A stretch of DNA of 30,514 nt from an uncultured archaeon (GTDB lineage: Archaea; Asgardarchaeota; Jordiarchaeia; Jordiarchaeales; Jordiarchaeaceae): the NCBI GenBank assembly GCA_964510585.1, contig CAZECW010000094.1, positions 1-30,514 of the forward strand, read 5' to 3'. The position numbers and the translations under genes are program-made. The notes beneath the pieces are model-generated. The model was given only the letters and a program-made list of their open reading frames with translations. It was not told where the DNA came from and did not search any database. Every line of letters begins with the position of its first letter. The stretch's first letter is position 1. Of this stretch, positions 8,085 through 30,324 are shown piece after piece.

Positions 8085-9239
8085 TCATCTAGTTATTTCC
8101 TTGGGTATGGGGGTTATTTCTTTTTTGAAGAGTTTATTTCTGAGCCATAAGGAAATGTTTACCATGTTTATGAGTACTGGGACTTCTAGTAGGGGTCCTA
8201 TGACTGCTGCGAATGCTTGACCTGAAGCTATGCCGAAGACTCCTATTGTTACCGCTATTGCCAATTCGAAGTTGTTACTGGCGGCTGTAAAGGCTATGGT
8301 TGCTGTATTCTCGTAGCTGAATCCTAGACGCCAAGACATCACATAGGATATTAGGAACATTATGACGAAGTATAGAACTAGTGGAATTGCGATTCTCAGA
8401 ACATCGTAGGGGAGGGAAATTATTTTTCCGCCTTGAAGCGAAAACATCATTATAACCGTGAAGAGTAGACCTATTAGAGCAGTTGGGGCCAGCTTCTTAA
8501 CAAAGTAGCCATCATACCACTCTTTTCCTCTTCTCCTTATCAGGCTGTATCTGGTTATCATACCGGCAAATAGAGGTATGCCCAAGTATATTATGACACC
8601 TTTAGCTATGTCAATAATTGACACGTTTACCACTGCGGCCCCCGTAAGGCTCAGTATCCAAGAGGGTACCCCAAGGATTCCCAGAATCCAGCTATATTCC
8701 GCAAACCATGTCGGTGTTCCAGTGAGCAACGAAGGAAGGAAGGTGATATATATGTAAGCTAGTATGGAGTACATTATCATCTGGAAAACCGAGTTTAGAG
8801 CAACTAAAACTGCGCAGAGTTCACTGTCCCCTTTTGCGAGCTGGTTCCAAACAAGTACCATAGCAATGCAGCGAGCCAGCCCAACAATTATGAGCCCCAT
8901 ACGGTACTCGGGCATGTCGGGTAAGAAAACCCACGCTAATGCAAACATTAGCGCTGGGCCAATTATCCAGTTTTGAACAAGGGATAACGCGAAGGCTCTC
9001 TTGGCTCCAAAGAGTCTTGAGAGTTCCTCGTATTTTACTCTGGCTAGTGGTGGATACATCATCCATATGAGTCCTATAGCGATGGGTAGGGAGACGGTGT
9101 CGAGCCTTAGTTCATTAAGAATTCCAGAAACCTCGGGAACCGTGGCGCCTAGTAAAACTCCGATAGCCATTGCCAGAAAAATCCACAGTGTTAGAAATCT
9201 GTCCAGAAGAGAGAGCTTTTGAGTACTTTGATTTGACAT
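8085..9239 (-). CDS. acr3: ACR3-family arsenite efflux transporter
   Basis: [55 protein letters not shown] and GPLLEVPVL motifs. Confidence 0.96.
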
Positions 9240-9304
9240 ACTAATTTTTCACCCGTAAAACATTATTTATTATTGGTTTTCGTACTAGGTCAAATTTTGA
9301 AAGT

Positions 9305-9324
9305 ATATCGATAAATGCAAATAT
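9305..9324. promoter_or_regulatory. Putative ArsR-type operator (copy upstream of acr3 / divergent arsR)
   Basis: ATATCG-ATAAATGC-AAATAT. Confidence 0.55.
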
Positions 9325-9512
9325 GGGGAGATTGTTGTATATTGCTAAACTAGTGCTTGAGCCGAACGCATTCAAACAAACACTCTTAATGAGAATCTTT
9401 TTATTTCTAAGCAAACACCAAGCGATTTTAATTAAGGACATTTTACGGTAGGTTTAAGTGTATTTAAGATTATCGTTTCATATTGATATTTATAGATTTA
9501 GGATGTGAATCG

Positions 9513-9893
9513 ATGGAACGTTTAGCACGCCTAATCGAGGAGGATGAGTGCTCGGCAAAGTGTGAAGAATACGCTGATGAACTAAAAAAATTAATGGTAG
9601 AGATGGATAAAACCCCGTTATGCAAGTTTGGATCTCTACTTTTTAAAGCCCTAGCGGATCGTAATCGTCTAAGAATTTTGAAGATGCTGGCTGTTAGAGA
9701 GATGTGTGTTTGCGAATTAAATGTGGCATTAGACATTTCTCAGGGAACAATATCGCACCATCTGAAAATCCTCCAAGAAGCCAAATTAATAAAGGGAAGA
9801 GTGAAAGGTAAATGGAACTATTACCGACTCAGCAGTAAACAAGTTGATAAATTCATAAAAATCAGCGAACAACTCATAAAGGAATTATACTAA
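9513..9893 (+). CDS. arsR: ArsR/SmtB-family metalloregulator
   Basis: FKALADRNRLRIL, EMCVCEL (alpha3 CxC) and SQGTISHHLKIL motifs. Extra N-terminal Cys (ECSAKC, PLC). ATG 9513 is preferred over the ORF-track start at 9483. Confidence 0.93.
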   Translation: MERLARLIEEDECSAKCEEYADELKKLMVEMDKTPLCKFGSLLFKALADRNRLRILKMLAVREMCVCELNVALDISQGTISHHLKILQEAKLIKGRVKGKWNYYRLSSKQVDKFIKISEQLIKELY

Positions 9894-10212
9894 AAAGCAA
9901 ACTCACGACTTTTCTTTACCCAAAAGGTAATATGGGAACCAACTAAATTTATTTTGATTCCAGGTAGCTACCTCCAAATAGAGCAGAAAAACACATCCTG
10001 AGAATTAAAACTAATTGAAAACTTTATAAACACTAGAAAAAGAAAAAACAGAAAAAGGAGGCACCGAAATTGGAACAGGCAGAAGCCACCAATCGCCATT
10101 TCACTAAACACCTCATGTAATTATGCTTCTGGGAACCATCAATGTCTAGCTTGAATTAAGCCTGAGGTATGAGTAGGAGGACAGTTTTTGTGGGTGCCAT
10201 GAATTTTTAGAT

Positions 10213-11250
10213 TTATTTAATTTTGTCCATTTCTTCTTTGATGCTTTCTAGAATTTGTTCTTGGGAGGGTGTGGTTTTTGTGAATTTTAGATTTCCATTG
10301 ATTATTAATGCGGGTATTAGAGAGTTTTTTCCTGCCTCTATTAATCCTTTTGAAACTGTGGTTCCTGGGGGGCGGGCTTCTCCTTTTCTCCAGATTCTGA
10401 GTTCTATTTTTTGTTCTTCTCCTGACTCCTCAATTGCTTTTTTAACGTTTTCCTCGATCTCTGAGCATGTTTCTGTTGGTGGGTTGTCTAAAAGTAGTTC
10501 GATTAACAGTTTTCCGTAGGCTAGGGGAGGGATTCCATAAAGCAACCATTTTTCTGTTGTGTACTTGGTTTCGAGAACTGTCTTGAGGAACTCTTTTTCC
10601 TGCGGCGTTAAGTCTCCTTTTACGAGTTTTACTTTGAAATCGTTAATTATTTTGATGCAGGTGTTCTTGATGAAATCCTCTCGGGATAAATTTTCCTTAT
10701 AACGGTTTTTTATGCTTGTAATTATTCTGGGAAGCAGATTTAACCTGTTTGGAACTGTGAAATTTGTATCAAGGTAAACGACTCCCTGAAAAACGAGTAC
10801 ATCATAGTACCAGAATTGGGCGGCTTGCGAAACAATTTTCCCATCTTCAACTAGATAAAAAGGATCCTCATACGTGCAGGGTATGCCGTAGGATCTGATG
10901 GCTCTTATTATGGGACTATAAATTGCCACATAAATTTCTCGGATATTCTTGGGCAAATCATAATTCTTTGTGTTGATAATGAAGGTGAATATTAGTGAGT
11001 TTTCATCGATGAAAAAGCTGGGACCGAAGGTGTGTCTCCTAGCAAGCTCAATTCCGTGCTTTTTGAGTGTGTCTATTTCCTCCTCTTCTAATGTGTCGTC
11101 GCCGATGCTTAATGTTGGTTTACAGCTCCAAAAATGGATGGTGCTTGGCGCTAGAGAGTTATGCACTTGGATCATGATTGTTTCATCCATTGCAAATCCT
11201 ACATGAGGGTTTAAATGCTCGTTAATTATTAGTCTAATTTCGTTAGCCAT
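10213..11250 (-). CDS. Degenerate lipoate-ligase (LplA/BPL fold) domain fused to C-terminal thioredoxin-like domain
   Basis: AMDETIM, TIHFWS and ARRHTFGP (vs RRxSGGG). KIVSQAAQ...FQG replaces RKISGNAQ...HGT. C-terminal IELL...PPTETCSEIE...IPALIING...PS. Confidence 0.8.
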   Translation of the reverse strand: MANEIRLIINEHLNPHVGFAMDETIMIQVHNSLAPSTIHFWSCKPTLSIGDDTLEEEEIDTLKKHGIELARRHTFGPSFFIDENSLIFTFIINTKNYDLPKNIREIYVAIYSPIIRAIRSYGIPCTYEDPFYLVEDGKIVSQAAQFWYYDVLVFQGVVYLDTNFTVPNRLNLLPRIITSIKNRYKENLSREDFIKNTCIKIINDFKVKLVKGDLTPQEKEFLKTVLETKYTTEKWLLYGIPPLAYGKLLIELLLDNPPTETCSEIEENVKKAIEESGEEQKIELRIWRKGEARPPGTTVSKGLIEAGKNSLIPALIINGNLKFTKTTPSQEQILESIKEEMDKIK

Positions 11251-11271
11251 CTCTTGGCTCCCATCATGGTT

Positions 11272-11613
11272 TTATTTAGATAGGGATTCTATGTCCTTTG
11301 TGGTTTCTGATATTCTGCGTAGGTGTTCTAGTATCATTTCATCGATCAGTTTTAGAACGAGGAATATTCGTGGATCCTTAACCTTATACTCCACTTTTTG
11401 CCCAATTTTTTTGTGCTCTAATATGTTGCAATTTTTTAGGATTTGAATGTGTTGGGAAACTGTAGATTGAGACTTGTAAACGTGGGGTAAAATATCGCAT
11501 TGACAGCACTCACCACTCCTCAGAAGATCCAGAATCTTCAACCTGGTTTCATCAGCCAAGGCTTTGAGCAGCTCAATCCTCTTCTTATACAGAAGCTCCT
11601 CCTTCTTCTCCAA
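11272..11613 (-). CDS. arsR: ArsR/SmtB-family metalloregulator (CCxC type)
   Basis: LKALADETRLKILDLLRSGECCQCDI and SQSTVSQHIQIL. Confidence 0.92.
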   Translation of the reverse strand: MEKKEELLYKKRIELLKALADETRLKILDLLRSGECCQCDILPHVYKSQSTVSQHIQILKNCNILEHKKIGQKVEYKVKDPRIFLVLKLIDEMILEHLRRISETTKDIESLSK

Positions 11614-11666
11614 ACCTGATCACATTGAGAATTCCTCATTTGAAATAATTCAAATAAGTTATCATA

Positions 11667-12263
11667 CTAAATTTGGATAACGTGAATCTTTTTTTCAAGC
11701 TCCGCAGATTTTTCACTATCCAAATAGGGACAAGCGCGGGGAGAGTTTTCACCAGTTGCTAGCTTTATGGCAAATCCGTAACATGTGGAAACCCCACACT
11801 CCCCACAATCCTTTTTGGGCAAAAATTTGTTGATTTCAATTGGGCTGAGCTTGGTTTTGCTACTCATCAACTCCGGAGATATCTTCCCGTGGCGATTCAC
11901 ATAAATAGAAGCTCGATTTAAAAGATCCTTAACGTATCTCAGGATACTTTCGGCTTCTTCCCTATCTTTAAGATTTGTAACAGTTATTTTCCCAGCACCA
12001 AAAATTGTGATTAGATGCTCCTGAAACATGAAGCTCATGGACTCCGACTGCCTATTATATGTGGCCTGGGGAAGGTAAAGGTAAATGGCGGGAAGCAAAT
12101 CATCCAGATTTTCACTAGTGGTTCCCACAACTCTTATCCTCTCGGAGCTTGTCAAACAGGGAAGAACTTCAGATATTTTAATCTCCTTCACTCTGGGAGG
12201 AATAAGTAGATTAATAAGGGAAGACCCCTTTTGCCCATCATCAACCATAATCATATCCTCCAT
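11667..12263 (-). CDS. Fe-S-binding protein (COG4871-like; C-terminal putative Fe-S domain)
   Basis: N-terminal LPCLTSSERIRV...HLITIFGAGKITV and C-terminal LPKKDCGECGVSTCYGFAIKL...CPYL. ATG 12263 follows the SD AGGTG. Confidence 0.8.
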   Translation of the reverse strand: MEDMIMVDDGQKGSSLINLLIPPRVKEIKISEVLPCLTSSERIRVVGTTSENLDDLLPAIYLYLPQATYNRQSESMSFMFQEHLITIFGAGKITVTNLKDREEAESILRYVKDLLNRASIYVNRHGKISPELMSSKTKLSPIEINKFLPKKDCGECGVSTCYGFAIKLATGENSPRACPYLDSEKSAELEKKIHVIQI

Positions 12264-12366
12264 TAACACAAACACCTAAACATCACATTAGTTTCTACCC
12301 GCATTTCTAACAAGTTAAAAGACCATCAACTCCTACTGCATTGAACATAGAAAAAAATGCATTTAA

Positions 12367-12386
12367 ATATTGCTATATGATAATAT
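12367..12386. promoter_or_regulatory. Putative ArsR-type operator
   Basis: ATATTG-CTATATGA-TAATAT adjacent to TTTAAAT, upstream of the Fe-S/ArsR/ligase-like unit. Confidence 0.5.
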
Positions 12387-12844: not shown

Positions 12845-12924
12845 GGAAATTCACCCTTGTTTTTAATTTTCGTGGAGATGGATTCTCATCCCATTTATAT
12901 ATACAGAAGTTTAAATATTTAAAT

Positions 12925-12944
12925 ATATCGATAAATGGTTATAC
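12925..12944. promoter_or_regulatory. Putative ArsR-type operator (weak right arm)
   Basis: ATATCG-ATAAATGG-TTATAC adjacent to TTTAAATA repeats. Confidence 0.45.
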
Positions 12945-13310: not shown

Positions 13311-13330
13311 ATATCGTTTAATGGCAATAT
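13311..13330. promoter_or_regulatory. Putative ArsR-type operator downstream of TATA of radical SAM pair
   Basis: ATATCG-TTTAATGG-CAATAT, with TTTAAATA at 13283-13290. Confidence 0.6.
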
Positions 13331-13475: not shown

Positions 13476-14930
13476 ACGGTTAGTACAATCTCCTCAATAG
13501 AGGTTTTAAAATCTACAATTGACAACAGATTTGTTCGTTTCCTGTTAAGAAGACTAACCCGTAAATGTAGGATAGACGGAAAAAGCCGCTTAAACATCGC
13601 CCTAGAACTTTTTTCAGGAGCTAGAGAAAAAGCTTGCTTTACTTGCAGCCACATAACCCTACCTATTGTTCGGTGGACTATAAACAGAGGCGGCGCAGCA
13701 TTTGGAGTTTCAGAGGAAGATTTGAAAACCAGGTTCAAAGACCCCTATTGGCGCACAGGCCTCGTGGACGTAATTAAGGGAATAGCAAAATATGGTGTAA
13801 AAAAGCCCTTCGTTCCCGGAGCGCCATTCCTCATTGTGTGGGACTACACCTACGCCTGCAACCTGAGATGCAAACACTGCTACGCCTCAGCCGGTAAGCC
13901 TCTACCCAACGAATTCAGCGCCAGGGAGGCACTCGACACTGCTGATGAGCTTGCCGACGCCGGAGTTACCGCTGTTGCATTCTCGGGAGGAGAACCCCTG
14001 ATGCGGAAAGATCTATTCGACACCATGAAGAGGCTGAGAGACAACGGAGTATTCACAGCTGTTGCAACAAACGGAACCCTCATAACTAGGGAGGTTGCTA
14101 AAAAACTTGCAGACCTCGGTGCGGGTTTTGTTCAGATAAGTCTGGATGGCGCAAGCGCCGAAACCCACGATAGTTTCCGCGGTGTGCCTGGCACCTATGA
14201 GAGAACACTCCAAGCTATTAAAAATTGTGTTGAAAACGGCCTCTTCGTTGAGATCTCAACCACAGCTACAAAAATGAATTATGAAGAAGTTCCCAAGATC
14301 GCTGATTTGTGTGAGAAGATTGGCGTCGACTGGTACATGATTTTTAACTTCGTTCCAACTGGTAGAGGATACTTCATGATAGAAAACGACCTAACACCCG
14401 AAGATAGGGAAGATCTTCTCAAGATACTGTGGAACAGGTTGAAAAGTGGTGGTAAACTACAGTATCTATCCACAGCACCTCAATTTGCCAGGGTGGCTCT
14501 ACAAGAAGAGAAAGATTCGGAAAAGAAGATTATACCGGGACACTTCTACAATCCTACGCTAATGGGGCAACTCTCTAACTTGGGTGACTTCATTGGTGGT
14601 TGTGGAGCGGGTAGAATGTATGCAGCCCTTGAGCCTGAGGGCACTCTGCAGCCTTGTGTTTTTCTACCAATTAAACTGGGAAATCTCAGGGAGGAGAGAT
14701 TCGAAGAGATATGGGACAATCATCCCATCCTTCAAACGCTTAGAAACAGGGATGAGCTGAAGGGAAGATGTAAAACCTGCGAGTACAGAGATGTCTGCGG
14801 AGGATGCAGAGCAAGAGCCTACGGATACTTTGGCGATGTCACCGCCCCAGATCCGGGATGCATATATAATAAGGATGTTTTCTACAAACTTAAGACTGAA
14901 TTCGAGGAGAAAAAGGTGATCGAGATTTAG
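13476..14930 (+). CDS. Radical SAM/SPASM protein with archaeal N-terminal extension
   Basis: CNLRCKHC, FSGGEP, QISLDG and SPASM motifs (GCGAG...QPCVF; CKTC...CGGCRARAY...DPGC). The frame is open and protein-like from about 13455. The only SD-supported start is ACG at 13476 (GGAGGT 13464-13469). The ORF-track start at 13722 truncates the conserved N-terminus. Confidence 0.88.
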   Translation, partial: TVSTISSIEVLKSTIDNRFVRFLLRRLTRKCRIDGKSRLNIALELFSGAREKACFTCSHITLPIVRWTINRGGAAFGVSEEDLKTRFKDPYWRTGLVDVIKGIAKYGVKKPFVPGAPFLIVWDYTYACNLRCKHCYASAGKPLPNEFSAREALDTADELADAGVTAVAFSGGEPLMRKDLFDTMKRLRDNGVFTAVATNGTLITREVAKKLADLGAGFVQISLDGASAETHDSFRGVPGTYERTLQAIKNCVENGLFVEISTTATKMNYEEVPKIADLCEKIGVDWYMIFNFVPTGRGYFMIENDLTPEDREDLLKILWNRLKSGGKLQYLSTAPQFARVALQEEKDSEKKIIPGHFYNPTLMGQLSNLGDFIGGCGAGRMYAALEPEGTLQPCVFLPIKLGNLREERFEEIWDNHPILQTLRNRDELKGRCKTCEYRDVCGGCRARAYGYFGDVTAPDPGCIYNKDVFYKLKTEFEEKKVIEI

Positions 14931-14943: not shown

Positions 14944-16335
14944 ATGCGTGTCTTGTTTGTTTTTCCCCCCTCTGTTTCAGCCATTCTCAACATTCTTGGT
15001 ACTACCTCTCCGCCTCTCGGGCTTGCTTATCTAGCCTCTTCGCTTGAGAGGGAGGGTGTGAATGTTAAGATTCTTGACGCGCAGGCACTAAATTTGAGCT
15101 TTGAGGAAATCGAAAGAGAGATAAGAGTTTGGAAACCCGATGTTGTCGGTGCCACGGGCGCCACACCAGCCTGCTTTGATGCACTCAGGGCTTTGGAGAT
15201 AGCTAAAAATTATGGTGCTAAAACTGTGGTGGGTGGTCCTCACTTCTCGTTTACAGACGTTGAAACTCTTGATAACTATCCTTTTGTGGACTTTGTTGTG
15301 AGAGGTGAGGGTGAAGAAACAATTGTGGAGCTTATAAGGGCTCTCGAGGGAAGCGGAAAAGTTTCGGAGGTATTAGGCTTGACGTACAGGGATGGAGAAA
15401 GTGTTCGAAAGAATCAGGATAGGCCGCTCATTAAAAATATTGACAGTATTCCCTTTCCAGCGTTCCACCTTCTCCCCATGAACAAGTACACTTTCGGCAA
15501 GTACCATTACGCAACAGCTATGACAAGCCGGGGTTGCCCTTACAGATGTGTTTTTTGCGCCTCATCAAAACTATTCGGTAAAAGGTGGAGGGGCAGAAGC
15601 CCAGAGAACGTGGCAGATGAGCTGGAACAACTTACTGAAAATTACCGTGTTAGAAACATTGAGTTTCTCGACGATACATTCACCCTAGACAAGGAACGGG
15701 CGGAGAAGATTTGTGACGAAATAATTAAGAGGGGACTGGATATAGTTTGGAATTGCTCCTCTAGGGTAAACACCATCAGCCGCAGTTTACTTGAAAAAAT
15801 GAAGAGAGCTGGCTGTACCTCCATATACTACGGCGTTGAATCTGGCTCCCAAGAAATACTGGATCGCATGAAGAAGGGAATCACACTAGACCAGATAGTA
15901 AGGGCGTTTAAAATAACCAAACGGGTGGGTATGGAGATAATAGGTTCATTCATAATCGGCTTCCCGGGTGAAACAATAAACACGATTAAAAAAACTATTA
16001 GTTTCGCAAAGTTTCTAAAACCGGACTACGCCCAATTCACCATCTGCACTCCATATCCCGGAACAGAACTCTTCGAAATCATTGAAAACAGTGACAATAT
16101 GCAGCTTTTAACCAAGGACTGGAGTGAATACGATGCCTTGAAACCAGTGTTTACGATAAACGATACACTCTATCCCTCACCATTAGATCTTATAAAATGG
16201 GTGAAGAAAGCCTATTTGAATTTCTATGTTTCACTGAGCTTTCTGTTTCAGCAGCTTAAAAAGAAACGCTTCATTGTTTGGAGAAAGGTGCTAAACGCAT
16301 TTAAGAATTATATAAAAGGCAATATCAGGTTCTGA
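14944..16335 (+). CDS. Cobalamin-binding radical SAM protein (class B methyltransferase-like)
   Basis: PPLGLAYLAS, GGPH, GEGE, SRGCPYRCVFC, DDTF, YGVESGSQ, IIGFPGET and TPYPGT motifs. Confidence 0.93.
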   Translation: MRVLFVFPPSVSAILNILGTTSPPLGLAYLASSLEREGVNVKILDAQALNLSFEEIEREIRVWKPDVVGATGATPACFDALRALEIAKNYGAKTVVGGPHFSFTDVETLDNYPFVDFVVRGEGEETIVELIRALEGSGKVSEVLGLTYRDGESVRKNQDRPLIKNIDSIPFPAFHLLPMNKYTFGKYHYATAMTSRGCPYRCVFCASSKLFGKRWRGRSPENVADELEQLTENYRVRNIEFLDDTFTLDKERAEKICDEIIKRGLDIVWNCSSRVNTISRSLLEKMKRAGCTSIYYGVESGSQEILDRMKKGITLDQIVRAFKITKRVGMEIIGSFIIGFPGETINTIKKTISFAKFLKPDYAQFTICTPYPGTELFEIIENSDNMQLLTKDWSEYDALKPVFTINDTLYPSPLDLIKWVKKAYLNFYVSLSFLFQQLKKKRFIVWRKVLNAFKNYIKGNIRF

Positions 16336-16769: not shown

Positions 16770-16928
16770 TTAACAGCACCCACCACTGGAGCCACCAGAA
16801 GGTAAAATTTTTTTAAATTCATTTTTCCAGCACTCGGTACACAGCCAAATTTTTCCTAAACTGCGATGTGTACCGCAAAGCAGGCTCACGTTTTCGCCAC
16901 TTTTACCGCAGATACCACACTTGTCCAT
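16770..16928 (-). CDS. Unannotated 52-aa Cys-rich protein (CxxC...CxxH...CxxC...terminal CC)
   Basis: MDKCGICGKSGENVSLLCGTHRSLGKIWLCTECWKNEFKKILPSGGSSGGCC*. It has the SD GGTGA, a TATA at 16982-16989 and a perfect operator between them. Below the ORF-track length cutoff. Confidence 0.8.
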   Translation of the reverse strand: MDKCGICGKSGENVSLLCGTHRSLGKIWLCTECWKNEFKKILPSGGSSGGCC

Positions 16929-16948: not shown

Positions 16949-16989
16949 GTTATATTGCTATACGCCAATATAACGATTTATTATTTAAA
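16949..16989 (-). promoter_or_regulatory. Promoter with perfect 9-bp inverted-repeat operator
   Basis: GTTATATTG-CTATACGC-CAATATAAC (16949-16974) lies downstream of TTTAAATA and a purine-rich BRE on the minus strand. Confidence 0.75.
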
Positions 16990-20267: not shown

Positions 20268-20750
20268 TTATGTTACCTTTTTTGTTACTGGGGCTTTTTT
20301 ACATACGCTGTTTTTTGGGGAAACTATTTGTTTCTCGTAGAGTTCATCCACCTTTTTTGCGATTTCTTCTGCGATTTTGTACGCTAATTCGTAACCAGCC
20401 TCGCCGAGGTCTTCTCGGGATTTGGGAACCAAAGCAGGGTATTTTTTCATTATTTCCTTTACTCTAATGGTTGCTGCTACAGGGCCGCTGTAGTTTTCCA
20501 CAGCAGTTCTGGCACATTCTTCTTCGCACCCTTCAATTGTGATTGTTGGGTGGGTCTTTGCAAATTCCCTTTCTTGGTTTCTACCTTTTCTTTCTAGTCC
20601 TCCAGCCATGAATAGGGGTTGACATAGGATTACAGTTTTTTCAGGTCGTAACTTTTCAAAAGCTATTATTGCAGCAACTCGGGATAAGGTGCCTTCAACC
20701 AAGTCTTCGCCACTGCAGGCAATGAGCCCAATTTTCTGTCTTATAGGCAA
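20268..20750 (-). CDS. DGC-domain putative zinc-binding protein (type B)
   Basis: IACSGEDLVEGT, ILCQP and IEGCEEECA (Cys4). TTG 20750 follows the SD GGTGA (the ORF track starts at 20786). Confidence 0.85.
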   Translation of the reverse strand: MPIRQKIGLIACSGEDLVEGTLSRVAAIIAFEKLRPEKTVILCQPLFMAGGLERKGRNQEREFAKTHPTITIEGCEEECARTAVENYSGPVAATIRVKEIMKKYPALVPKSREDLGEAGYELAYKIAEEIAKKVDELYEKQIVSPKNSVCKKAPVTKKVT

Positions 20751-20751
20751 G

Positions 20752-21171
20752 TTAATCACCGTTTCTTTTTTCTTCAAGTAACTCATTTATTTTTTGGTAG
20801 ATTTTTTCTGCAAGTTTGCGGGATAGTTTTTTTGCATTTTCTCCTAGTGGATAAACACTTCTTTCTGGTTTCAATTCACGATTTTCTTTTAATACATCTG
20901 TTGACAGGAATTGAGCATCAATTTTTCCCACAGCTTCTGAAACATCATTATACGAACACTTTAGAGAACACCCGTCAATCACAATAACTTTGTTTGATTT
21001 TAGTTTATCAATAACTTCTTTTTTCCCCTTAACAATTAGTGGGAGACATTCTGTGTCCGCCTTGCCTTTAGCTAGTTCGTTTACCACGATGTATGCTGCT
21101 TCTCTGCCTATACTGCCATAGACTTTACCTATTCCACTGCAGGGAAGCAGGTAAACTATTTCTTTTGTCAA
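20752..21171 (-). CDS. DGC-domain putative zinc-binding protein (type A)
   Basis: LPCSGIGKVYG, ECLP and IDGCSLKCS. Confidence 0.88.
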   Translation of the reverse strand: MTKEIVYLLPCSGIGKVYGSIGREAAYIVVNELAKGKADTECLPLIVKGKKEVIDKLKSNKVIVIDGCSLKCSYNDVSEAVGKIDAQFLSTDVLKENRELKPERSVYPLGENAKKLSRKLAEKIYQKINELLEEKRNGD

Positions 21172-21173
21172 GC

Positions 21174-22055
21174 TCAGTCGCCTATGTTTTGTGCTCTGTG
21201 TTTTCGTTCTTCTTCTATTTTCTTTTTCATATACTCAAAATAGGCTGGACCGTCCATTAATAATTCTTTATCCTCTTCAAAGTTTTTCAGTTCTACTTCT
21301 ACGAACCATCCCTTCCCATAGGGATCTTGATTTAATAGTTCGGGTGATTTTTCTAGTTCCTTGTTCACCGCGACGACTTTGCCTGAAGCGGGAGTAATCA
21401 GTTGGAGGACAATTTTTATGGATTCAAAGCTTCCTATGTCGTCAAACTGTTCAAATTCCAAACCGATTTCGGGAAATTCCACAAAAATTATGTCGCTTGC
21501 CATGTTTTGGAGGAAATCAGAGATGCCCATAAGCGCCTTTTTACCCATGGGTTTTACCCAGCAATCATTTTCATTAAAATAGTAGCCAGACTTTGGAACT
21601 CTGAAACGGAACTTATCTACGGTGGTTTCAAAATATTCGATTTCTTCCAGCTCCCTAATCTCAGCAACCTCACCTTCTGATTCCTTTAAACTTTCAAGAA
21701 TTTCGGACGCTATGAATTCGGCTAATTTTTGCCCCTCCTCATCCAAAATGAGAGATTTTCCGGGGTTCAACTTGTACTTTTTAACCATGTCGGGCGTAAA
21801 AATTTTTTTACCGGGCCTTAATGATCTTTCATCAAGTAGCTTAGTTGCGCAGCGAGTCATACATCCATCAATCACAATTATATCAGATTCCTTCAAGAGT
21901 TCTTCGTATTTTTCATCTCCCGTATTCAGGAGAACGGGGCATATCAGCTCGATGTCAGGATTCTTTTCTATTAATTTCAATGCCACGTTTCTAGCAACAA
22001 CACCCAAAGACTTATCAAGCCCATTGCAGGGCAAAACACAAACCTTCTTACCCAT
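21174..22055 (-). CDS. DGC-domain / glycine-cleavage-H (lipoyl carrier) fusion protein
   Basis: N-terminal LPCNG, ICP and IDGCMTRCA. C-terminal GISDF..DIIFVEFP..GSFESIK (lipoyl Lys, codon 21414-21416)..PASGKVVAVN..PELLNQDPYGKGW. Confidence 0.9.
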   Translation of the reverse strand: MGKKVCVLPCNGLDKSLGVVARNVALKLIEKNPDIELICPVLLNTGDEKYEELLKESDIIVIDGCMTRCATKLLDERSLRPGKKIFTPDMVKKYKLNPGKSLILDEEGQKLAEFIASEILESLKESEGEVAEIRELEEIEYFETTVDKFRFRVPKSGYYFNENDCWVKPMGKKALMGISDFLQNMASDIIFVEFPEIGLEFEQFDDIGSFESIKIVLQLITPASGKVVAVNKELEKSPELLNQDPYGKGWFVEVELKNFEEDKELLMDGPAYFEYMKKKIEEERKHRAQNIGD

Positions 22056-22068: not shown

Positions 22069-22371
22069 CTACTCGCTTTCCTTCCTTAATTCTTTGATTA
22101 GCTTGGTAATCTCTCTTTTGTCGGGAAATGATAGTGCGTCCACAGCGCAGGTTTTGGCGCAAGCCCTACAAAAAACTACACAGTTGTATGGGTTTTTTAC
22201 TATCAGTTTCTTTTCCTCATTTTCTCTCCGCTCGTAAACGTTGTGGGGACAAAACTTGTCGCACTCCATACAGAAATTGCACTTGCTGTAGTCGATTGTG
22301 GGGAACCAGGGAATTTTCTTTCTGGGAACGCCCATAAAGGTTTCCTGTTCCGCATCGTACTCTTTACTCAT
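22069..22371 (-). CDS. 2x[4Fe-4S] ferredoxin-like protein
   Basis: CNFCMECDKFCP and CVVFCRACAKTC, with an N-terminal FMGVPRKKIPWFPTIDY extension. Confidence 0.9.
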   Translation of the reverse strand: MSKEYDAEQETFMGVPRKKIPWFPTIDYSKCNFCMECDKFCPHNVYERRENEEKKLIVKNPYNCVVFCRACAKTCAVDALSFPDKREITKLIKELRKESE

Positions 22372-22762
22372 TCTTTTCTTCCTCCTCCTCTTTCTTTTCT
22401 TGGTATTCTTCTAGGGTTTTTTCAACTAGTTCTACAGCTTGGTCTGTTGTCATTTCTCTTATGTCGAGGGGTATGAGGTCTTTTTTTACATCTAGACCCG
22501 CTTTTTCGAAAGAGTCACGAAACAGTTTATATTGCATGTTGGGAGCGCAACCCGCTATGAGGTATTTTCGTCCGGGACGCAGAAAATCTTCAAGGAAGCG
22601 GTCACCATCTTCTTCGCAAAGCTGTGGATGAATAAACGCATATTCTACGGGTAGTTCTACACGTACCCGGTTAATAAAGTCCCAAATATCCATTTTTGCA
22701 AATCCTGGACATTTACCGGTGCATACGCACATTATAACGCCGATGTCTTTTTCTTCACTCAT
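22364..22762 (-). CDS. Stand-alone HdrA N-terminal-domain-like protein
   Basis: IGVIMCVC, QLCEEDG, IAGCAPNM..LFR and DIRE mirror the HdrA N-terminus (IGVYxCHC, MCSDPG, VAACSP..FR, NIRE). ATG 22762 is preferred; the ORF-track extension runs through the promoter. Confidence 0.7.
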   Translation of the reverse strand: MSEEKDIGVIMCVCTGKCPGFAKMDIWDFINRVRVELPVEYAFIHPQLCEEDGDRFLEDFLRPGRKYLIAGCAPNMQYKLFRDSFEKAGLDVKKDLIPLDIREMTTDQAVELVEKTLEEYQEKKEEEEEKNE

Positions 22763-22880: not shown

Positions 22881-22900
22881 ATATCGATTAATGGCAATAT
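22881..22900. promoter_or_regulatory. Putative ArsR-type operator
   Basis: ATATCG-ATTAATGG-CAATAT in the divergent intergenic region. Confidence 0.65.
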
Positions 22901-23066: not shown

Positions 23067-23095
23067 ATATTGTCATAAAACGATAAGTTTAAATA
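23067..23095 (+). promoter_or_regulatory. Putative ArsR-type operator plus TATA box
   Basis: ATATTG-TCATAAAA-CGATAA (23067-23086) immediately before TTTAAATA (23088-23095). Confidence 0.6.
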
Positions 23096-24253: not shown

Positions 24254-24661
24254 ATGGAAGGAAAAGAAGGTAAGACTGTTATCTATGCTTGTTTTGGTGG
24301 TTTTTCCAATACCGGCATTACTACTGCTTTAGCCAGCATGGATGCGGTAAAAGAGGTTGGACTAGACAAGGTATGTATAGGTTGCTTGGGTGGATTGCCA
24401 ATAAACGTAAGACCTGTTTATGAAAACACTGATAAAGCGAAGAAAATTATTACCGTTGACGGTTGCCCGATGGAATGTTCAAGGAAAACAGTGGAGAATG
24501 CAGGATACAAGATAGCTAAAAGCATTGTACTAGCAAGAGACATCGGAATGAAGAAAAAGTCACTATATGAAGGAAATGAGAAAAACCTGACAGACAACAT
24601 TAATGGGGAAGATGTCAGAAAAGCAAAAGAGCTAATTGTCAAAGCAATACTAGAGGATTAA
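24254..24661 (+). CDS. DGC-domain putative zinc-binding protein (type C)
   Basis: YACFGGFSNTG, IGCLGG and VDGCPMECS. Confidence 0.88.
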   Translation: MEGKEGKTVIYACFGGFSNTGITTALASMDAVKEVGLDKVCIGCLGGLPINVRPVYENTDKAKKIITVDGCPMECSRKTVENAGYKIAKSIVLARDIGMKKKSLYEGNEKNLTDNINGEDVRKAKELIVKAILED

Positions 24662-25803: not shown

Positions 25804-26859
25804 TTATGGGAGAATTGTTTTTGCTTGCATTATTGCTACTATGAGGTCTGTTGGTTTTATTCCAGGTGTAATAATATTTTGTTTATAAAAATCTTCGACT
25901 ATTTGTTTTATGTTTTGATAGTTGTATGGTTTGTCTTTTAGCATTTTTTCGAGTTGTTTTAGTGCCTGTGGAGGGGTTATGAAGAAGTCTCCGCTTATGT
26001 TTATTTCTTTAATATTGTTGTTGGATATGTTTAGTGAGACGCGTATTAGTCCTCCGGGTGCCTTGTACACGGTTTCGTGTTCAAACTCGAGGCTGCTTCC
26101 AAAAATCCACTCGGGGGAGCTATACTTTTTTTGGAGTTCCCGGGCCATTTCGAGTTCTTCTGGTGTGAGTTTCGAGTCCTGGAACTCGACGCCAAGAGCT
26201 TCTTGGTATCCCCTGCGAACCGCGTTTTTCACAATACTCACGGGAATTGTTGTCCCCAGCTCCCTTTTTATTGTTGTCACTCTATCTCTTACTGAGGATG
26301 CATTCTTGTCCCTGAGTTTTTCGGTGGACACTCTCAGAGCATTTTCTAAATTTTCAAAGTTTAGATCTATGAGGAGTGTTCCGTGATGGATGAGAACATT
26401 ATGGAGTTGGTGCTGAGCGTTTCCAGAAATTTTTCTTTTACCAATAACAATATCATTTACGGGCTTAAACTCTGCCTCCAGTCCCAATAATTTAAGGGCG
26501 ATAATTAAACCTCTACAGAGATACGAGTATGATTCTATGGGGTCTTTGAAGGATCTGAACTTGTTAGTGTCTATGTAGAGTGAGTAGTTTAGGTTTCCCG
26601 AATCCTGGTACACTGCCCCGCCCCCCGATAGTCTTCTAACTATTTTTATTCCCTTCTGTTTACAGTAGTCTACATTCACTTCTTTCTCTACCCGCTGGTT
26701 GCACCCTACACTTACGATTAGGGGGTGTTGCCACACTCTGAGAGCGTTTGGAGAATTTTTTTCCAGTATGCTTCTGGCCATGGTTTCTTCTATTGCTAGG
26801 TTCATGTATGGGTCATCTGAACTATAGTCGATAAAGCGCCAGGACTCCTTCAAAGTCAC
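25804..26859 (-). CDS. lplA: Lipoate-protein ligase A (with C-terminal adenylation-assisting domain)
   Basis: YMNLAIEE, VRRLSGGGAVYQDSGNLNYS, VNDI, RKISGNAQ, HHGTLL and C-terminal YKAPGGLIRV...ISGDFF. Confidence 0.93.
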   Translation of the reverse strand: MTLKESWRFIDYSSDDPYMNLAIEETMARSILEKNSPNALRVWQHPLIVSVGCNQRVEKEVNVDYCKQKGIKIVRRLSGGGAVYQDSGNLNYSLYIDTNKFRSFKDPIESYSYLCRGLIIALKLLGLEAEFKPVNDIVIGKRKISGNAQHQLHNVLIHHGTLLIDLNFENLENALRVSTEKLRDKNASSVRDRVTTIKRELGTTIPVSIVKNAVRRGYQEALGVEFQDSKLTPEELEMARELQKKYSSPEWIFGSSLEFEHETVYKAPGGLIRVSLNISNNNIKEINISGDFFITPPQALKQLEKMLKDKPYNYQNIKQIVEDFYKQNIITPGIKPTDLIVAIMQAKTILP

Positions 26860-26867
26860 CCCGCCCC

Positions 26868-27902
26868 TTACTTTATTCTTTTAATCTCTTCCCTTACAAT
26901 ATTTGAAAACTCTTCAGGGGTGGGAACAGTTCTTCCATATTTTAGTTCGCCGTTTACTATCACTGCAGGAATCTGGGACTTTTTAGCAGCTTCTATTAAC
27001 CCGTTTGTAACAGTGACACCGGGAGGTAGACCTCTCCCCCTTCTCCATATCCTTAACTCAATTTCTTCTTCGTTCCCAGACATTTTTATTCCCTCCTTCA
27101 CATTTTTTTCTATCTGGGAACACATTTTAGTGGGGGGAGAAGCAGTCAAAACCTCTATGAGAAGTTTACCATAAGCTAGAGGTGGAGAAAACTCCAAATT
27201 CCACCTTGGAGACTGATACTTAGTTTTCAAAACCCGTTCAAAAGTTTTATTCTCTAAATCTGTCAAGCTTCCCTCAATAAGGGTGGCTCCAAATTTTTCC
27301 CTTATTCTACTTGAGGCTTCCTCTATAAACTCTCTAACAGTTTTTTTGCTTGATGAGAGCCGTGTTAGACTGGATACCTTTTTGGGGAGGATACCCGCAG
27401 AGTTGGCAAAATCCACGTCGACATCCAAGTAAACGACGCCCTGAAAAACTAATATATCATAGTACCAAAACTGTGAAACTTGAGAGGTTACCACATCATC
27501 TACGAATAGGTAAGATGTATTATCAAAGGCACATTTTACGCCAAAATTTTCTATTGTTTCGATTATTGGAGAGTAAACCAGCCGGTACAAATCATTTAAC
27601 TCTCTTGGAAAAAGAGGATCACGTGTATCAAGGATGAAGCCAAATAGTAATGAACCTTCATCAGCGTAGAATGTTGGTCCATCAGTAACCCTCCTAATAA
27701 TTCGGACGTTTTTCTCTTTGAGGAAACTCATCTGGTCTTGGTTCAACCGCAGGTTTCCTAAAACTATGGAGGGAGGGCTTCTCCAAAAATGTACTGTGTT
27801 GGGTGCATCTCCACCCTTGACGTGGAGCATGATGGTTTCATCTAAAGCCCACCCCAAGCTTGGCTCAACAAGGTCTTGGATAAAAATTCTTAGTTCCTTA
27901 AT
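26868..27902 (-). CDS. Degenerate lipoate-ligase domain fused to C-terminal thioredoxin-like domain (paralog of 10213..11250)
   Basis: ALDETIM, TVHFWR, IRRVTDGP and VVTSQVSQ..FQG (no catalytic Lys), with PPTKMCSQIE...IPAVIVNG..PT. ATT 27902 (SD GGAGGT, 1 nt after the upstream stop) fits the paralog alignment. The alternative ATGs at 27953/27977 overlap the upstream gene. Confidence 0.8.
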   Translation of the reverse strand: MKELRIFIQDLVEPSLGWALDETIMLHVKGGDAPNTVHFWRSPPSIVLGNLRLNQDQMSFLKEKNVRIIRRVTDGPTFYADEGSLLFGFILDTRDPLFPRELNDLYRLVYSPIIETIENFGVKCAFDNTSYLFVDDVVTSQVSQFWYYDILVFQGVVYLDVDVDFANSAGILPKKVSSLTRLSSSKKTVREFIEEASSRIREKFGATLIEGSLTDLENKTFERVLKTKYQSPRWNLEFSPPLAYGKLLIEVLTASPPTKMCSQIEKNVKEGIKMSGNEEEIELRIWRRGRGLPPGVTVTNGLIEAAKKSQIPAVIVNGELKYGRTVPTPEEFSNIVREEIKRIK

Positions 27903-27903
27903 T

Positions 27904-28599
27904 TTAGTGACCTCCCTTATAATATACACATTTATCCTTTTTACATTCTTCATTGTTGGAAGAAAAGGGACACCCATCGAAATTTGAGGGTAATTTGATT
28001 TGAAAATTTTTTTCTAAAAAGTCTACGGCGCTTTTTAACGAGGCATAAACGCTGGCTTTGCAGCATCTTGGACCTCCCAACTTTGAGATAGAGAGTAGTG
28101 ATTCACCACTGGCATCCAAAGACTGCGTCCTTTCAGTGTCAGACTTGTAAGTTGCTCCCGTTAGAACGCTCATGGCAATTCCAACACCTGCCCCAGCTCC
28201 GCAAATCCCCCAGGATCCGCAAGTACCATAAGGTATCATTTTCCCCCTCTTAATGGCAATTCTAATTGCTCTGGATGGCAATTCGTGCCCTACATTTTTT
28301 ATTGTGGTTAATAGTACAGCGGGAACAAGGTAGTGATGGATGGGAGAATGCATGGGTATTGCGGGATGCTTCATTATTAGGTTAGCTAGTTCGTATGGGT
28401 TTTTTATTTCACTTCTCTCACAGGTTTTTAAAACTAATTCTTCTGGGAGAGCTAGTCTACAGTTCTCGCACACAAAGTGGTGGTCATCGCAAGTATAGTC
28501 TGCAACTGAAACCTCCTTACAATATATGCACCTTAGCTCTTCAGAAGTTGGGTGAAGAACTTTATTGCAAATATTGCAGTAGAAAACCTCGTTTTCCAA
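27904..28599 (-). CDS. DUF5714-like Cys-rich protein with N-terminal zinc-finger-like domain
   Basis: CNIC, CIYC, C..HHFVCENC, HSPIHHYLVPAVLL, GTCGSWGICGAG, GGPRCCK and CPFS..N.EC....C motifs. Confidence 0.75.
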   Translation of the reverse strand: MENEVFYCNICNKVLHPTSEELRCIYCKEVSVADYTCDDHHFVCENCRLALPEELVLKTCERSEIKNPYELANLIMKHPAIPMHSPIHHYLVPAVLLTTIKNVGHELPSRAIRIAIKRGKMIPYGTCGSWGICGAGAGVGIAMSVLTGATYKSDTERTQSLDASGESLLSISKLGGPRCCKASVYASLKSAVDFLEKNFQIKLPSNFDGCPFSSNNEECKKDKCVYYKGGH

Positions 28600-28748: not shown

Positions 28749-29009
28749 TCATGCTTTTAGAGCATTTTCTATTGCTTTTTCTAGGCTTTCTGGCTTAAAA
28801 AACTCTGGAAACACTTCGCTGCCGTTTACCACCAGCCCCTTACTGCCGATTTTGAATTTCCTAGCCTCATCTGAGAAAGAAGGCTTTACATCAAATTCCA
28901 CTTGGTCTCGGTACTTTGTCAGTACTGCAAATACGCGGTCCATGAATGCTGAGAATTGGCAGGCGCATGAACCCATAGGGATGAAAATATCTACTTTAAC
29001 TTTTGACAT
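28749..29009 (-). CDS. Small thioredoxin-fold-like protein with CxC motif
   Basis: KVKVDIFIPMGSCACQFSAFMDRV...GLVVNG. SD GGAGG. Confidence 0.78.
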   Translation of the reverse strand: MSKVKVDIFIPMGSCACQFSAFMDRVFAVLTKYRDQVEFDVKPSFSDEARKFKIGSKGLVVNGSEVFPEFFKPESLEKAIENALKA

Positions 29010-29136
29010 GGAATCATTCCTCCTATTTCTAGTCTTGTTCTGTTTTATTCACCTTTTTATTTTTGATTAAACTTGTGGTTTGACGCCCATTAACATGGTT
29101 TTCCTTGTATAGTATTAGTGTCGACGGCTTTTAAAT

Positions 29137-29156
29137 ATATCGACGTATAACAATAT
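29137..29156. promoter_or_regulatory. Putative ArsR-type operator
   Basis: ATATCG-ACGTATAA-CAATAT overlapping TTTAAATA, upstream of the CxC/DUF5714/ligase unit. Confidence 0.65.
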
Positions 29157-29225
29157 ATCAATAATCGCGTACAACACCAAAAAAATTCTAAAAGTGGAAA
29201 AAAGGAGCAAAACAAATAGAGAAAT

Positions 29226-29588
29226 TTAGAAAATGATTATGGCTTCGCCCTGTTTTAGAATTATTTTTACCAACTCTTCTTCTTCAATGGGAGTGATGCC
29301 TTTTATTATTCTTGCTTCAGGTATTCTTCTTTCCTGAAGAGATTTTTTGTGAACATATAATTCGGACTCGGGAAGAAGTGTATAGATTAAATCTTCCACG
29401 CTGGGCATAGATATTTTCTCTGGGTTTTGATTTGAAATTGTGGCATATACTCCATCGCCCATAAATAATATTGTGCATTTAAGCCCGCTGTTGAGGCATG
29501 CTACGGCTACATATAGTCCACTGAAACAGTCTTCAAAACCGTAGGGCGCTTTTGTGATGATTAGCAGTACCGTGTTAATTTTAATCAC
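29226..29588 (-). CDS. DsrE/DsrF-like family protein (DsrF/TusC-like)
   Basis: LLIITKAPYG, LFMGDGVY and LYVHKKSLQERRI motifs. Confidence 0.85.
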   Translation of the reverse strand: MIKINTVLLIITKAPYGFEDCFSGLYVAVACLNSGLKCTILFMGDGVYATISNQNPEKISMPSVEDLIYTLLPESELYVHKKSLQERRIPEARIIKGITPIEEEELVKIILKQGEAIIIF

Positions 29589-29592
29589 CTTC

Positions 29593-29976
29593 TTAAAGGG
29601 CTAATACCTTATCACTATTTTTGAGCCAGTAGCCCAAGTCACGCAGATTAGCTATGTGAACCCCACTAACATGTTGGCTGGTGGGATAAATTCCATCTTT
29701 CTCCTCCCCCTCAACATAACCCCTAGCTCCTGCACAACGCGAGCAGGATTTTATTTTTGCTCCCTTCTCAGCCAGTTCACTGAGTTTTTCACCAACATTG
29801 GGGAAATATTTTGGACTCTGCCCCTTTTTAGCAGAGTGAACTGCCTCCATATAAAGAAAAATGTTAACGTTGTAACCCTTCTCAAGAGCCTTCTCAGCTA
29901 TTAAGAGACCAATATCCACTCTTTGAGAAGCATAAGGACCATGATATAGAACTAAGGTCAATGTCTTGCCCATCAT
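29593..29976 (-). CDS. DsrE/TusD-like sulfurtransferase family protein
   Basis: VLYHGPY, VNIFLYMEAV and KSCSRCAGARG (conserved Cys). Confidence 0.87.
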   Translation of the reverse strand: MMGKTLTLVLYHGPYASQRVDIGLLIAEKALEKGYNVNIFLYMEAVHSAKKGQSPKYFPNVGEKLSELAEKGAKIKSCSRCAGARGYVEGEEKDGIYPTSQHVSGVHIANLRDLGYWLKNSDKVLAL

Positions 29977-29982
29977 AATCAC

Positions 29983-30324
29983 CTAGAAGCATAAAATTCT
30001 ATCAGCACTTTCCATAATATCAACTACCATCTTTTCAACCAAGTTATATTGACATTTTACCCGTTTTGTAAGTAAATCCTCCTGAATCCCCCGTGCCTCC
30101 AAATCCTCCTTACTCGCAAAAACTTGAATGTGCTCAGAATCAATAGTTTCTAGATTCATTCCTCTCATTCCACAGTATACTCCATCACCAATCAAGTACA
30201 CTGTGACACTAGCATCAGTTCTAATAATTTCACTTATTAAGTCGAATGCTTTCTCTACCCGCTCCGAAATTGGAGGATCCATTATGATAGAAACAACTTT
30301 CAACAAGACACTACCACCACACAC
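29983..30324 (-). CDS. DsrH/TusB-like protein
   Basis: VYLIGDGVY and FASKEDLEARGI. The start is probably TTG 30303 or 30306. Confidence 0.75.
   Translation of the reverse strand: MCGGSVLLKVVSIIMDPPISERVEKAFDLISEIIRTDASVTVYLIGDGVYCGMRGMNLETIDSEHIQVFASKEDLEARGIQEDLLTKRVKCQYNLVEKMVVDIMESADRILCF

Follow-up and report, generated by a model that had tools for sequence, protein, structure and literature searches.

Arsenite, As(III), binds tightly to vicinal dithiols, dihydrolipoamide among them, and the classical account of its toxicity rests on binding to dihydrolipoyl groups. The described systems closest to the one reported here are the sHdr-LbpA pathway of sulfur oxidation, which has its own ligase, sLpl(AB), and a DsrE3/TusA sulfur relay; the Lpd-DlaT-AhpD-AhpC relay of Mycobacterium tuberculosis; and peroxide reduction by the H-protein, the L-protein, and OsmC in Trichomonas. 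Here, we analyzed a stretch of 30,514 nucleotides from an uncultured Asgard archaeon of the Jordiarchaeaceae (hereafter the window), which is the entire contig C94 (CAZECW010000094.1) of a 3.78-Mb genome that is 96% complete (GCA_964510585.1). In positions 8085–30324, arsenic genes stand beside a five-gene module that encodes a lipoyl carrier. We read this 22-kb region as one arsenite-responsive island, a local regulon of a Jord/Freyarchaeial Asgard archaeon under ArsR-type repressors that contains a relay module, and we put the probability of this reading at about 0.55.

The core of the module consists of genes for an HdrA-N-terminal-domain-like (HdrA-N-like) iron-sulfur (Fe-S) protein, a ferredoxin, a fusion of a DGC domain with a GcvH-type lipoyl-carrier (H) domain, and two further DGC proteins, in that order (Table 1). 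To survey its neighborhoods, we scanned one genome per species for homologues of the fusion and retrieved 80 loci, 33 from Asgard archaea and 47 from bacteria, the latter mostly acetogenic Firmicutes (mainly Acetobacterium, Eubacterium, Clostridium, Moorella-type organisms, and other anaerobes). Open reading frames were called and clustered, and the clusters were named by Pfam. The order of the five genes is essentially invariant across both groups; the ferredoxin gene was found in 59 of the 80 loci by clustering and in 77 by tblastn. An arsR gene adjoins the core in most loci. In the Asgard loci, every ArsR gene at a distance of one or two genes from the core (23/23) carries a C-x-C-D/E motif, CVC(D/E), in helix α3, a position that we take to be the As(III) site of R773 ArsR.

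Ars genes were counted in loci of at least 10 kb (24 Asgard and 40 bacterial). An acr3 gene lies within the fetched flank in 13 of the 24 Asgard loci, and at least one of acr3, arsA, arsD, arsC (LMWP), and arsP in 28 of the 40 bacterial ones. The typical order in Acetobacterium is arsC-arsC-DGC-arsR, the core, and then a PF04060 protein gene, cysteine desulfurase, Lpd, arsA, and arsD. A separate, independent sample of 301 Asgard species genomes, with the HdrA-N-like gene as marker, gave the module in 52 genomes and 24 of 70 genera, a patchy distribution that is not that of a housekeeping system. In at least 22 of these genomes acr3 lies within ∼6 kb of the marker, and in at least 11 the two are directly adjacent; a gene with one or two copies per genome would be expected to fall within 10 kb by chance in ∼1% of cases. 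The co-occurrence of lipoyl and DGC genes with ars genes elsewhere, on which the initial annotation had staked its proposal, was thus borne out by the survey. As the set adjoins arsenic genes in many archaea and acetogenic bacteria, the module is probably an undescribed part of arsenic defense.

A recurrent operator had also been noted upstream of most transcription units, and our counts agree. The pattern ATATYG-N8-CRATAT has eight matches in the window at no more than one mismatch against 0.27 expected, and four of its six exact copies genome-wide lie within this 30.5-kb contig. Seven of the eight matches are in promoter-side spacers, and the eighth, at 25602, is inside a MazE gene. An independent repeat search returned four 33-nucleotide direct copies and one inverted copy. 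In three related genomes (loci L026, L027, and L098), copies of the motif are found ahead of acr3, the HdrA-N-like gene, the CxC gene, and the DGC pair; because they precede both the pump and the lipoyl module there, the two belong to one regulon in this lineage. One exact copy on contig C173, near an LplA/radical SAM locus, lies between convergent genes, outside any promoter, and was taken as chance.

The name HdrA-N-like, given at first from the letters alone, held up in profile and fold comparisons. A profile built from 27 orthologues matches residues 5–94 of methanogen HdrA in a search of PDB profiles (E = 5.6e-4), and the seven best solved matches of the AlphaFold model (predicted local distance difference test, pLDDT, 86.6) are HdrA N-terminal domains, with MvhD lower. 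The protein has 124–132 residues and a C-V-C-T-G-K-C motif among its invariant cysteines. Asgard and Firmicute copies share 62–88% identity (alignment A2), far above the expectation for vertical descent, which, as far as the sequences can tell, implies a recent transfer of the cassette between domains and strong constraint upon it.

The DGC-GcvH fusion has 993 homologues. In an alignment of 65 of them, the lipoyl lysine, Lys-214 in an FES-x-K motif, is invariant, as are two of the DGC cysteines; the other two DGC cysteines and the cysteine of an NENDCW motif are conserved in at least 90%. In the structural model (pLDDT 91), the H half superposes on human H protein with a Z score of 22.7 (root mean square deviation 1.0 Å over 121 residues) and on the plant protein with a Z score of 22.4. 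The DGC half adopts a flavodoxin/DsrE-like α/β fold, whose best solved match is an uncharacterized Wolinella protein (PDB entry 3pu6, Z 10.3).

This close structural likeness raises the question of whether the fusion merely serves ordinary glycine cleavage as its H protein, with gcvP/T/L partners encoded at other sites. Indeed, its H domain falls just under the GcvH equivalog cut-offs, at 109–113 bits against 116–117 (TIGR00527, 109.3 versus 115.85; NF002270, 113.3 versus 117), and gcvP1/P2 and gcvT are present on contig C76. However, the same genome holds four other GcvH genes, the best scoring 154 bits, so that the fusion is dispensable for glycine cleavage. In the 80 loci it always accompanies DGC, ferredoxin, and HdrA-N-like genes under ArsR, and in none does it adjoin gcvP/T; the patchy distribution likewise speaks against this role. 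We therefore consider glycine cleavage, the least weighty of the alternatives, very unlikely; as an objection it has been weakened.

The initial annotation had counted six Cys4 DGC proteins. Six PF08859 matches were found, five stand-alone genes and the fusion (40.8–63.9 bits, cut-off 27), and these are all that the genome contains. Across ten aligned DGC domains, the cysteines at positions 11, 68, and 72 are invariant, and Cys-42 is present in nine. A DGC profile gave no meaningful match in the PDB, and we know of no characterized member of the family. Prediction of a complex of the three core paralogues (residues 1–128 of the fusion and the two DGC proteins), run with no controls, scored 0.31 against a mark of 0.32, a value that speaks neither for nor against a DsrEFH-like hetero-oligomer. 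The additional DGC pair of the window also occurs in L023, L027, L030, and L098, and the DGC5 subfamily sits between arsR and arsC in Acetobacterium loci.

Some module loci hold genes that are absent from the window. A 158-residue DGC variant follows a CxC gene behind ArsR in 17 loci. In 16 Asgard loci (L028–L043 and others, of Lokiarchaeial type), the core operon has DUF166 (PF02593) as its sixth member. A gene of ∼95 codons with no Pfam match adjoins acr3 in 13 Asgard module loci (L028, L029, L031–L034, L036, L038, L043, L047, L049, L071, and L072).

Around the core, LplA, two ligase-like/thioredoxin-like fusions, a DUF5714 protein, and the CxC proteins form the module's own lipoylation set. 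Other islands of this kind hold these accessory parts again. In L111 and L112, the two other contexts of the ligase-like fusion that we examined, this fusion, LplA, DUF5714, and the PF04060 protein stand beside ArsR and ACR3, and both contexts mirror the sub-operons of the window. The order in L111 is ArsR / small protein-DUF5714-ligase-like-LplA / DGC-DGC-GcvH-DGC-DGC-Thioredoxin_3 / ACR3, and that in L112 is PF04060 protein-ArsR-ligase-like / ArsR / ACR3. In L025 and L111, DUF5714 adjoins the module and genes of the LplA type.

The two ligase-like fusions were described at the outset as ligase-like/thioredoxin proteins. The LplA-like half of that description stands, whereas the thioredoxin-like part scores 16–18 bits, under the Pfam cut-off of 24.8, and has T-x-x-C instead of CxxC. 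In alignment A5, where 19–20% identity leaves the register uncertain, the RRxxGGGAV loop reads FGPSFF and DGPTFY, with GGG not kept, and the column of the catalytic lysine holds isoleucine and valine, one fusion having a lysine one column earlier. Both are probably pseudo-ligases rather than ordinary ligases, to judge from these substitutions and from scores far below the LplA equivalog cut-off. The family is rare, with 12 clusters, all of them Asgard. The two CxC proteins are likewise present as first listed, and members of their family lie near ArsR in 19–20 of the 33 Asgard module loci. Their description as thioredoxin-like is a lead only (language-model neighbor score 0.90; no Pfam match); hhalign gives probabilities of 2% against the ArsD profile and 13% against Thioredoxin_3, so that no relation to either could be demonstrated by sequence. 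As a separate observation, the genome of the window (G000) has 17 LplA/LipB catalytic-domain matches (on C24, C32, C37, C96, C99, C105, C134, C139, C179, C189, C193, and others), about a dozen of them in frames of 360–400 residues with 20–27% identity to the LplA of the window, an unusually large and divergent family.

The ligase genes of the island could mean that it serves to renew or protect lipoylated enzymes when arsenic is present, with LplA, the ligase-like fusions, and the GcvH-type carrier as a lipoyl relay by which poisoned H and E2 proteins are re-lipoylated or freed of arsenic, and with DGC and Fe-S proteins handling cofactors. In Bacillus, GcvH is an intermediate of the LipM/LipL lipoyl relay, and a dedicated full-length LplA with two LplA-derived proteins in the window would fit such a role, as would the Lpl-type genes that come after the core in no fewer than 12 bacterial loci. 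In L023 (Lokiarchaeota, 2525–5140), the module abuts an 871-residue protein with lipoyl, E3-binding, and E2 catalytic domains and a complete E3-type flavoprotein, which is flanked by LplA and a radical SAM gene. However, most Asgard loci have the core without a nearby ligase, the ligase-like fusions, as aligned, lack the LplA signature loop, and no known lipoyl relay assigns a role to the Fe-S pair or to the three to six DGC proteins. We regard lipoyl-enzyme renewal as improbable; it is second in weight among the alternatives.

The first in weight, itself unlikely, is that the module forms an enzyme complex that transforms arsenic, reducing arsenate or organoarsenicals, or adding sulfane sulfur to arsenite before export. 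For the reduction, such a complex would use the lipoyl dithiol together with low-potential electrons from the ferredoxin, the HdrA-N-like cluster, or, in bacteria, Lpd/NADH. The two Fe-S proteins are invariant in the core, no ArsC of either family was found in the genome of the window at its 96% completeness, and bacterial loci often add an Lpd-type flavoprotein (17 loci), a cysteine desulfurase (15), and a protein of the PF04060 family (18, usually adjoining the desulfurase; this family is also represented in L112). In four Loki loci, the module is flanked by DsrE-like genes together with TusA- and YeeE-like ones; the window has a DsrEFH-like trio of its own. A radical SAM/SPASM gene of AhbD/NirJ-like type is found between acr3 and the core in the window and likewise in a closed relative (G038:C1:629157–630547). 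On the other hand, the sulfur-relay genes are confined to a minority of loci, and the core yielded no known fold of an arsenate reductase or a methyltransferase. In 14 bacterial loci the module stands together with ArsC, for which it is therefore no simple replacement.

Under our preferred reading, that of an arsenite-responsive island, As(III) would free ArsR from the shared operators and thereby derepress the island, and LplA would lipoylate the fusion at its H domain. Low-potential electrons from ferredoxin and the HdrA-N-like protein would hold the lipoyl dithiol and the DGC cysteines in the reduced state; in bacteria, NADH may serve as a second electron source through Lpd. The swinging dihydrolipoyl arm and the Cys4 sites might then bind As(III) or resolve arsenic-thiol adducts, and the metalloid would be handed to Acr3 (in bacteria, to ArsD/ArsA), sparing the cell's own lipoyl enzymes. 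It is likely that the module is an arsenic-linked accessory module. That it is a lipoic-acid-dependent arsenic-handling machine, driven by low-potential ferredoxin and horizontally shared between Asgard archaea and acetogens, with DGC as a new class of metalloid-binding Cys4 protein, we hold at somewhat less than even odds, and the specific lipoyl/cysteine relay chemistry, each chemical step of which we infer, is more tentative still. In this respect the overall interpretation of the initial annotation divides: the link with arsenic is upheld by synteny, the CVC-type ArsR proteins, and the shared operator, and its proposed chemistry shares the tentative standing of ours.

Several observations weigh against the favored reading. 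About half of the Asgard loci comprise ArsR and the core only, with no ars structural gene within 10 kb, among them the Heimdall-type L045, L050, L051, and L053. An acr3 gene is common in Asgard genomes anyway (210/301), so that co-presence at genome level is weak evidence; the hand tally of listed rows (acr3 in 48 of 52 module genomes versus 162 of 249 without the module) was judged too weak and dependent on kinship, and was set aside. ArsR/SmtB regulators with α3 cysteines can sense antimony, cadmium, or lead too. Zinc or an Fe-S cluster fits a Cys4 site no worse than three-coordinate As(III) does, and simple As(III) transfer needs no Fe-S proteins. As the module co-occurs in bacteria with ArsD, ArsA, ArsC, and Lpd, it is a substitute for none of these. 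The operator evidence is partly circular, the pattern having been drawn from sites of the window itself; the copies at 12367, 16952, and 23067 played no part in that derivation, nor did the sites in relatives or the genome-wide count.

Loci of this kind would also be expected if the module were not specific to arsenic at all and were a general cassette for thiols, persulfides, or soft metals (zinc, cadmium, antimony) under ArsR/SmtB control that collects in resistance islands. Roughly a quarter of the bacterial loci, in addition to about half of the Asgard ones, have no ars structural gene within 10 kb; genes for a CDF exporter, DsbD, peroxiredoxin, and thioredoxin are common neighbors too, and NCBI names the DGC proteins “putative zinc-binding protein.” Against this, the ars-specific neighbors (arsA, arsD, acr3, arsC, and arsP) occur far above chance for a single-copy gene within 10 kb, the adjoining regulators carry CVC(D/E), and acr3 and the module share an operator in the Jord/Frey lineage. 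We consider the general cassette improbable as well, ranking just behind lipoyl-enzyme renewal.

Table 1. Genes and operator sites of the arsenic-linked island, in window coordinates; bit scores are followed by the model cut-off where one applies
Feature	Position	Strand	Evidence or context
acr3 arsenite efflux permease	8085..9239	-	TIGR00832 429.1 bits (cut-off 282.8), residues 9-362
Operator	9305..9324		Upstream of acr3
ArsR family regulator, α3 motif EMCVCEL	9600..9893	+	PF01022 58.5 bits (cut-off 22); start codon uncertain, open reading frame from 9483
LplA-like protein with C-terminal thioredoxin-like part, T-x-x-C	10213..11250	-	PF21948 75 bits; TIGR00545 68.0 bits (cut-off 280)
Second ArsR family regulator, motif GECCQCD	11272..11613	-	PF01022 52.6 bits (cut-off 22)
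Protein with C-terminal PF04060 “putative Fe-S cluster” domain	11667..12275	-	Pfam/NCBIfam
Operator	12367..12386		Upstream of PF04060-ArsR-ligase-like operon
Small CGC protein (CxC family), 92 residues	12566..12844	-	No Pfam match; C15 and C17 invariant
Operator	12924..12943		Upstream of CGC gene; more divergent, found with another pattern and the repeat search
Operator	13311..13330		In the 877-nucleotide spacer preceding the radical SAM pair
Radical SAM/SPASM protein, AhbD/NirJ-like	13722..14930	+	Under all equivalog cut-offs
B12-binding radical SAM protein, BchE/HpnJ-like	14944..16335	+	Under cut-offs; multi-copy family in the genome
Cys-rich protein of 52 residues, two CxxC pairs, C-terminal GGSSGGCC tail	16770..16928	-	Operator site 24 nucleotides upstream
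Operator	16952..16971		Upstream of the 52-residue Cys-rich gene
TauE/SafE-type anion exporter	19152..20144	+	PF01925 122 bits; adjoins core in L026 too
DGC protein, conserved position 2 after fusion	20268..20786	-	PF08859; orthologue alignment A7
DGC protein, conserved position 1 after fusion	20752..21171	-	PF08859; orthologue alignment A6
DGC-GcvH fusion: Cys4 DGC domain and lipoyl-carrier H domain	21174..22055	-	PF08859 and PF01597 (109.6 bits)
2x[4Fe-4S]-type (dicluster) ferredoxin, 100 residues	22069..22371	-	Fer4 families
HdrA-N-terminal-domain-like Fe-S protein	22364..22762	-	Five invariant Cys; profile and fold matches
Operator	22881..22900		Upstream of core operon; identical site precedes hdrL in L026 and L027
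Operator, inverted copy	23067..23086		Upstream of divergent DGC operon; inverted pair I2
Second DGC pair	23276-23692, 23697-24122	+	PF08859; divergent from core operon
DGC protein, separate subfamily DGC5	24254..24661	+	PF08859 61.8 bits
PIN toxin and MazE-type antitoxin (region 24676-25463)	24988-25440, 25443-25700		Strain-specific insertion
Full-length lipoate-protein ligase LplA	25804..26859	-	TIGR00545 283.3 bits (cut-off 280); C-terminal PF10437 54.6 bits
Second LplA-like/thioredoxin-like fusion	26868..27977	-	TIGR00545 61.1 bits (cut-off 280)
DUF5714 protein, Cys-rich, related to the “MbdU” metal-binding selenoprotein model	27904..28599	-	PF18978 191.7 bits; NF045648 137 bits (cut-off 600)
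Small CAC protein (CxC family), 86 residues	28749..29009	-	Paralogue of 12566-12844; genes 72% identical at DNA level
Operator	29137..29156		Upstream of CxC-DUF5714-ligase-like-LplA operon
DsrE/DsrF/DsrH-like trio	29226-29588, 29593-29982, 29983-30324	-	PF02635 49 and 72.7 bits, PF04077 36.3 bits

Scans with Pfam and NCBIfam confirmed every gene that had been listed initially, namely acr3, two arsR genes, the GcvH domain, LplA, the DGC proteins, the ferredoxin, TauE, and the DsrE/F/H set. By tblastn acr3 is single-copy in the genome, and its operator site lies 62 nucleotides upstream. Both ArsR proteins have an HTH_5 winged-helix domain and an α3 cysteine motif. The 52-residue Cys-rich protein has an 88% identical paralogue on contig C26, and the middle protein of the DsrE/F/H-like trio matches YchN and DsrE in the PDB. 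Interspersed in the island are two toxin-antitoxin pairs, one broken FMN-reductase gene, and the two radical SAM genes. The latter were considered as an archaeal LipS1/LipS2 lipoyl synthase, and this was dropped, their best NCBIfam models being AhbD/NirJ and BchE/HpnJ, in agreement with the early statement that the window holds no lipoyl synthase. The best genome-wide scores for LipA (TIGR00510, cut-off 310) were 42.6 bits on C173 and 27.6 bits on C25. In seven bacterial loci, a different radical SAM/SPASM gene follows arsR.

The closest protein relatives of the window genes are named Jordarchaeaceae or Freyarchaeota, and the same DNA is contained in hot-spring metagenomes of at least six studies. 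A closed chromosome from the same GTDB genus is collinear with the window through the ABC transporter, acr3, the radical SAM/SPASM gene, the core, the DGC pair, and the CxC gene, so that the gross gene order of the window is sound; relative to it, the window has three inserted blocks (9240–13497, 14889–20318, and 24120–28751). A repeat of ∼140 nucleotides, with 86–94% identity, occurs at the contig start (1–140) and at 17394–17535 beside a VapBC pair. Its depth in hot-spring metagenomes is 50–100 times that of flanking DNA, and it is probably a high-copy mobile or repetitive element; the high-copy repeat at 17251–17535 is a break point of contigs of related strains from other hot-spring samples.

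Other features of the window are recorded here for completeness. Adjoining acr3 and just outside the island (5421–7696) are a gene with weak likeness to ArsR/HTH_20 and the two genes of an ABC-2 exporter (ATPase 5995–6939, permease 6941–7696), all of them collinear and duplicated in the closed relative. In two related strains (runs X4 and X6), 24675 is joined directly to 25464, so that these strains do not have the PIN toxin gene or the last codons of the antitoxin. The FMN_red/flavodoxin-like gene at 18330–18961 is broken: its N-terminal part, with a MKATVILGSPRKNGNT stretch, is in a different frame and has several stops after it, and only a C-terminal open reading frame of 128 residues is left; L026 also has a 128-residue open reading frame beside TauE. 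No tRNA genes or Rfam families were found in the window, and reading TGA as selenocysteine in the spacers 12845–13721 and 16336–17607 gave no convincing hidden selenoprotein gene.

If the favored reading is true, the classic target of arsenite becomes a tool of resistance, as an arm for capture or reduction, and a new mechanism is added to a field whose gene list is thought nearly complete. It would bear on how anaerobes cope with reduced arsenic in arsenic-rich hot springs and sediments. Among the cultured carriers are Clostridium ljungdahlii, Eubacterium callanderi, and several Acetobacterium type strains. As the module occurs in cultured anaerobes, for some of which genetic tools exist, the hypothesis is directly testable.

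The system had been proposed as undescribed, and our literature search found no description of the module. Only one of the papers found records a PF08859 gene in an ars operon, as a passing DGC annotation in the ArsR-ArsP-ArsE(Thioredoxin_3)-DGC operon of Pseudodesulfovibrio mercurii ND132 (bioRxiv 10.1101/2022.10.17.512643); that operon has the PF08859 gene in common with the island but comes without the lipoyl carrier, the Fe-S pair, and a functional test.

Compared part by part, the carrier shares its fold and lipoyl-lysine motif with GcvH, from which it differs in its N-terminal DGC domain, the NENDCW cysteine, its constant separation from gcvP/T, and a score just under the equivalog cut-off. 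The HdrA N-terminal domain carries an Fe-S cluster in the electron-entry path; this domain and MvhD (PDB entries 7bkb, 5odc, and 8rvu) are the best profile and fold matches of the HdrA-N-like protein (22–24% identity, template modeling score ∼0.58 normalized to the query), which here is a stand-alone protein partnered by DGC proteins and a small ferredoxin. In Pfam, the DGC family is given as distantly DsrE-like. The three paralogous small α/β proteins in fixed order recall DsrEFH/TusBCD, of which the window also has a true DsrE/F/H-like trio, but DGC has four cysteines instead of the single cysteine of DsrE, and its solved matches after 3pu6 are generic flavodoxin-like folds. Like ArsD and ArsA, the Cys-rich soluble proteins would pass As(III) to the exporter; no sequence relation was detected between the CxC family and ArsD, and the module does not replace ArsD/ArsA because both occur with it in bacteria.

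The sHdr-LbpA system resembles the island in its GcvH-like carrier outside glycine cleavage, dedicated ligase, Hdr-derived Fe-S parts, and DsrE/TusA-type proteins. Here, however, only an HdrA N-terminal domain of ∼125 residues is present, with no FAD domain, and Pfam scans gave no HdrB/HdrC CCG-domain match in any open reading frame of the window; the carrier is fused to DGC, and the context is ArsR and acr3, not sulfur oxidation. Without HdrB/C and the flavin part of HdrA, the module is no member of the sHdr-LbpA family. The Lpd-DlaT-AhpD-AhpC relay and the H/L/OsmC system of Trichomonas differ in their components, as the window has no Lpd, AhpD, AhpC, or OsmC and shows an apparent Fe-S input and DGC acceptors. 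What the module shares with them is logic rather than parts, the use of a protein-bound lipoyl dithiol as a redox relay, to which bacterial forms of the module often add the Lpd-type flavoprotein.

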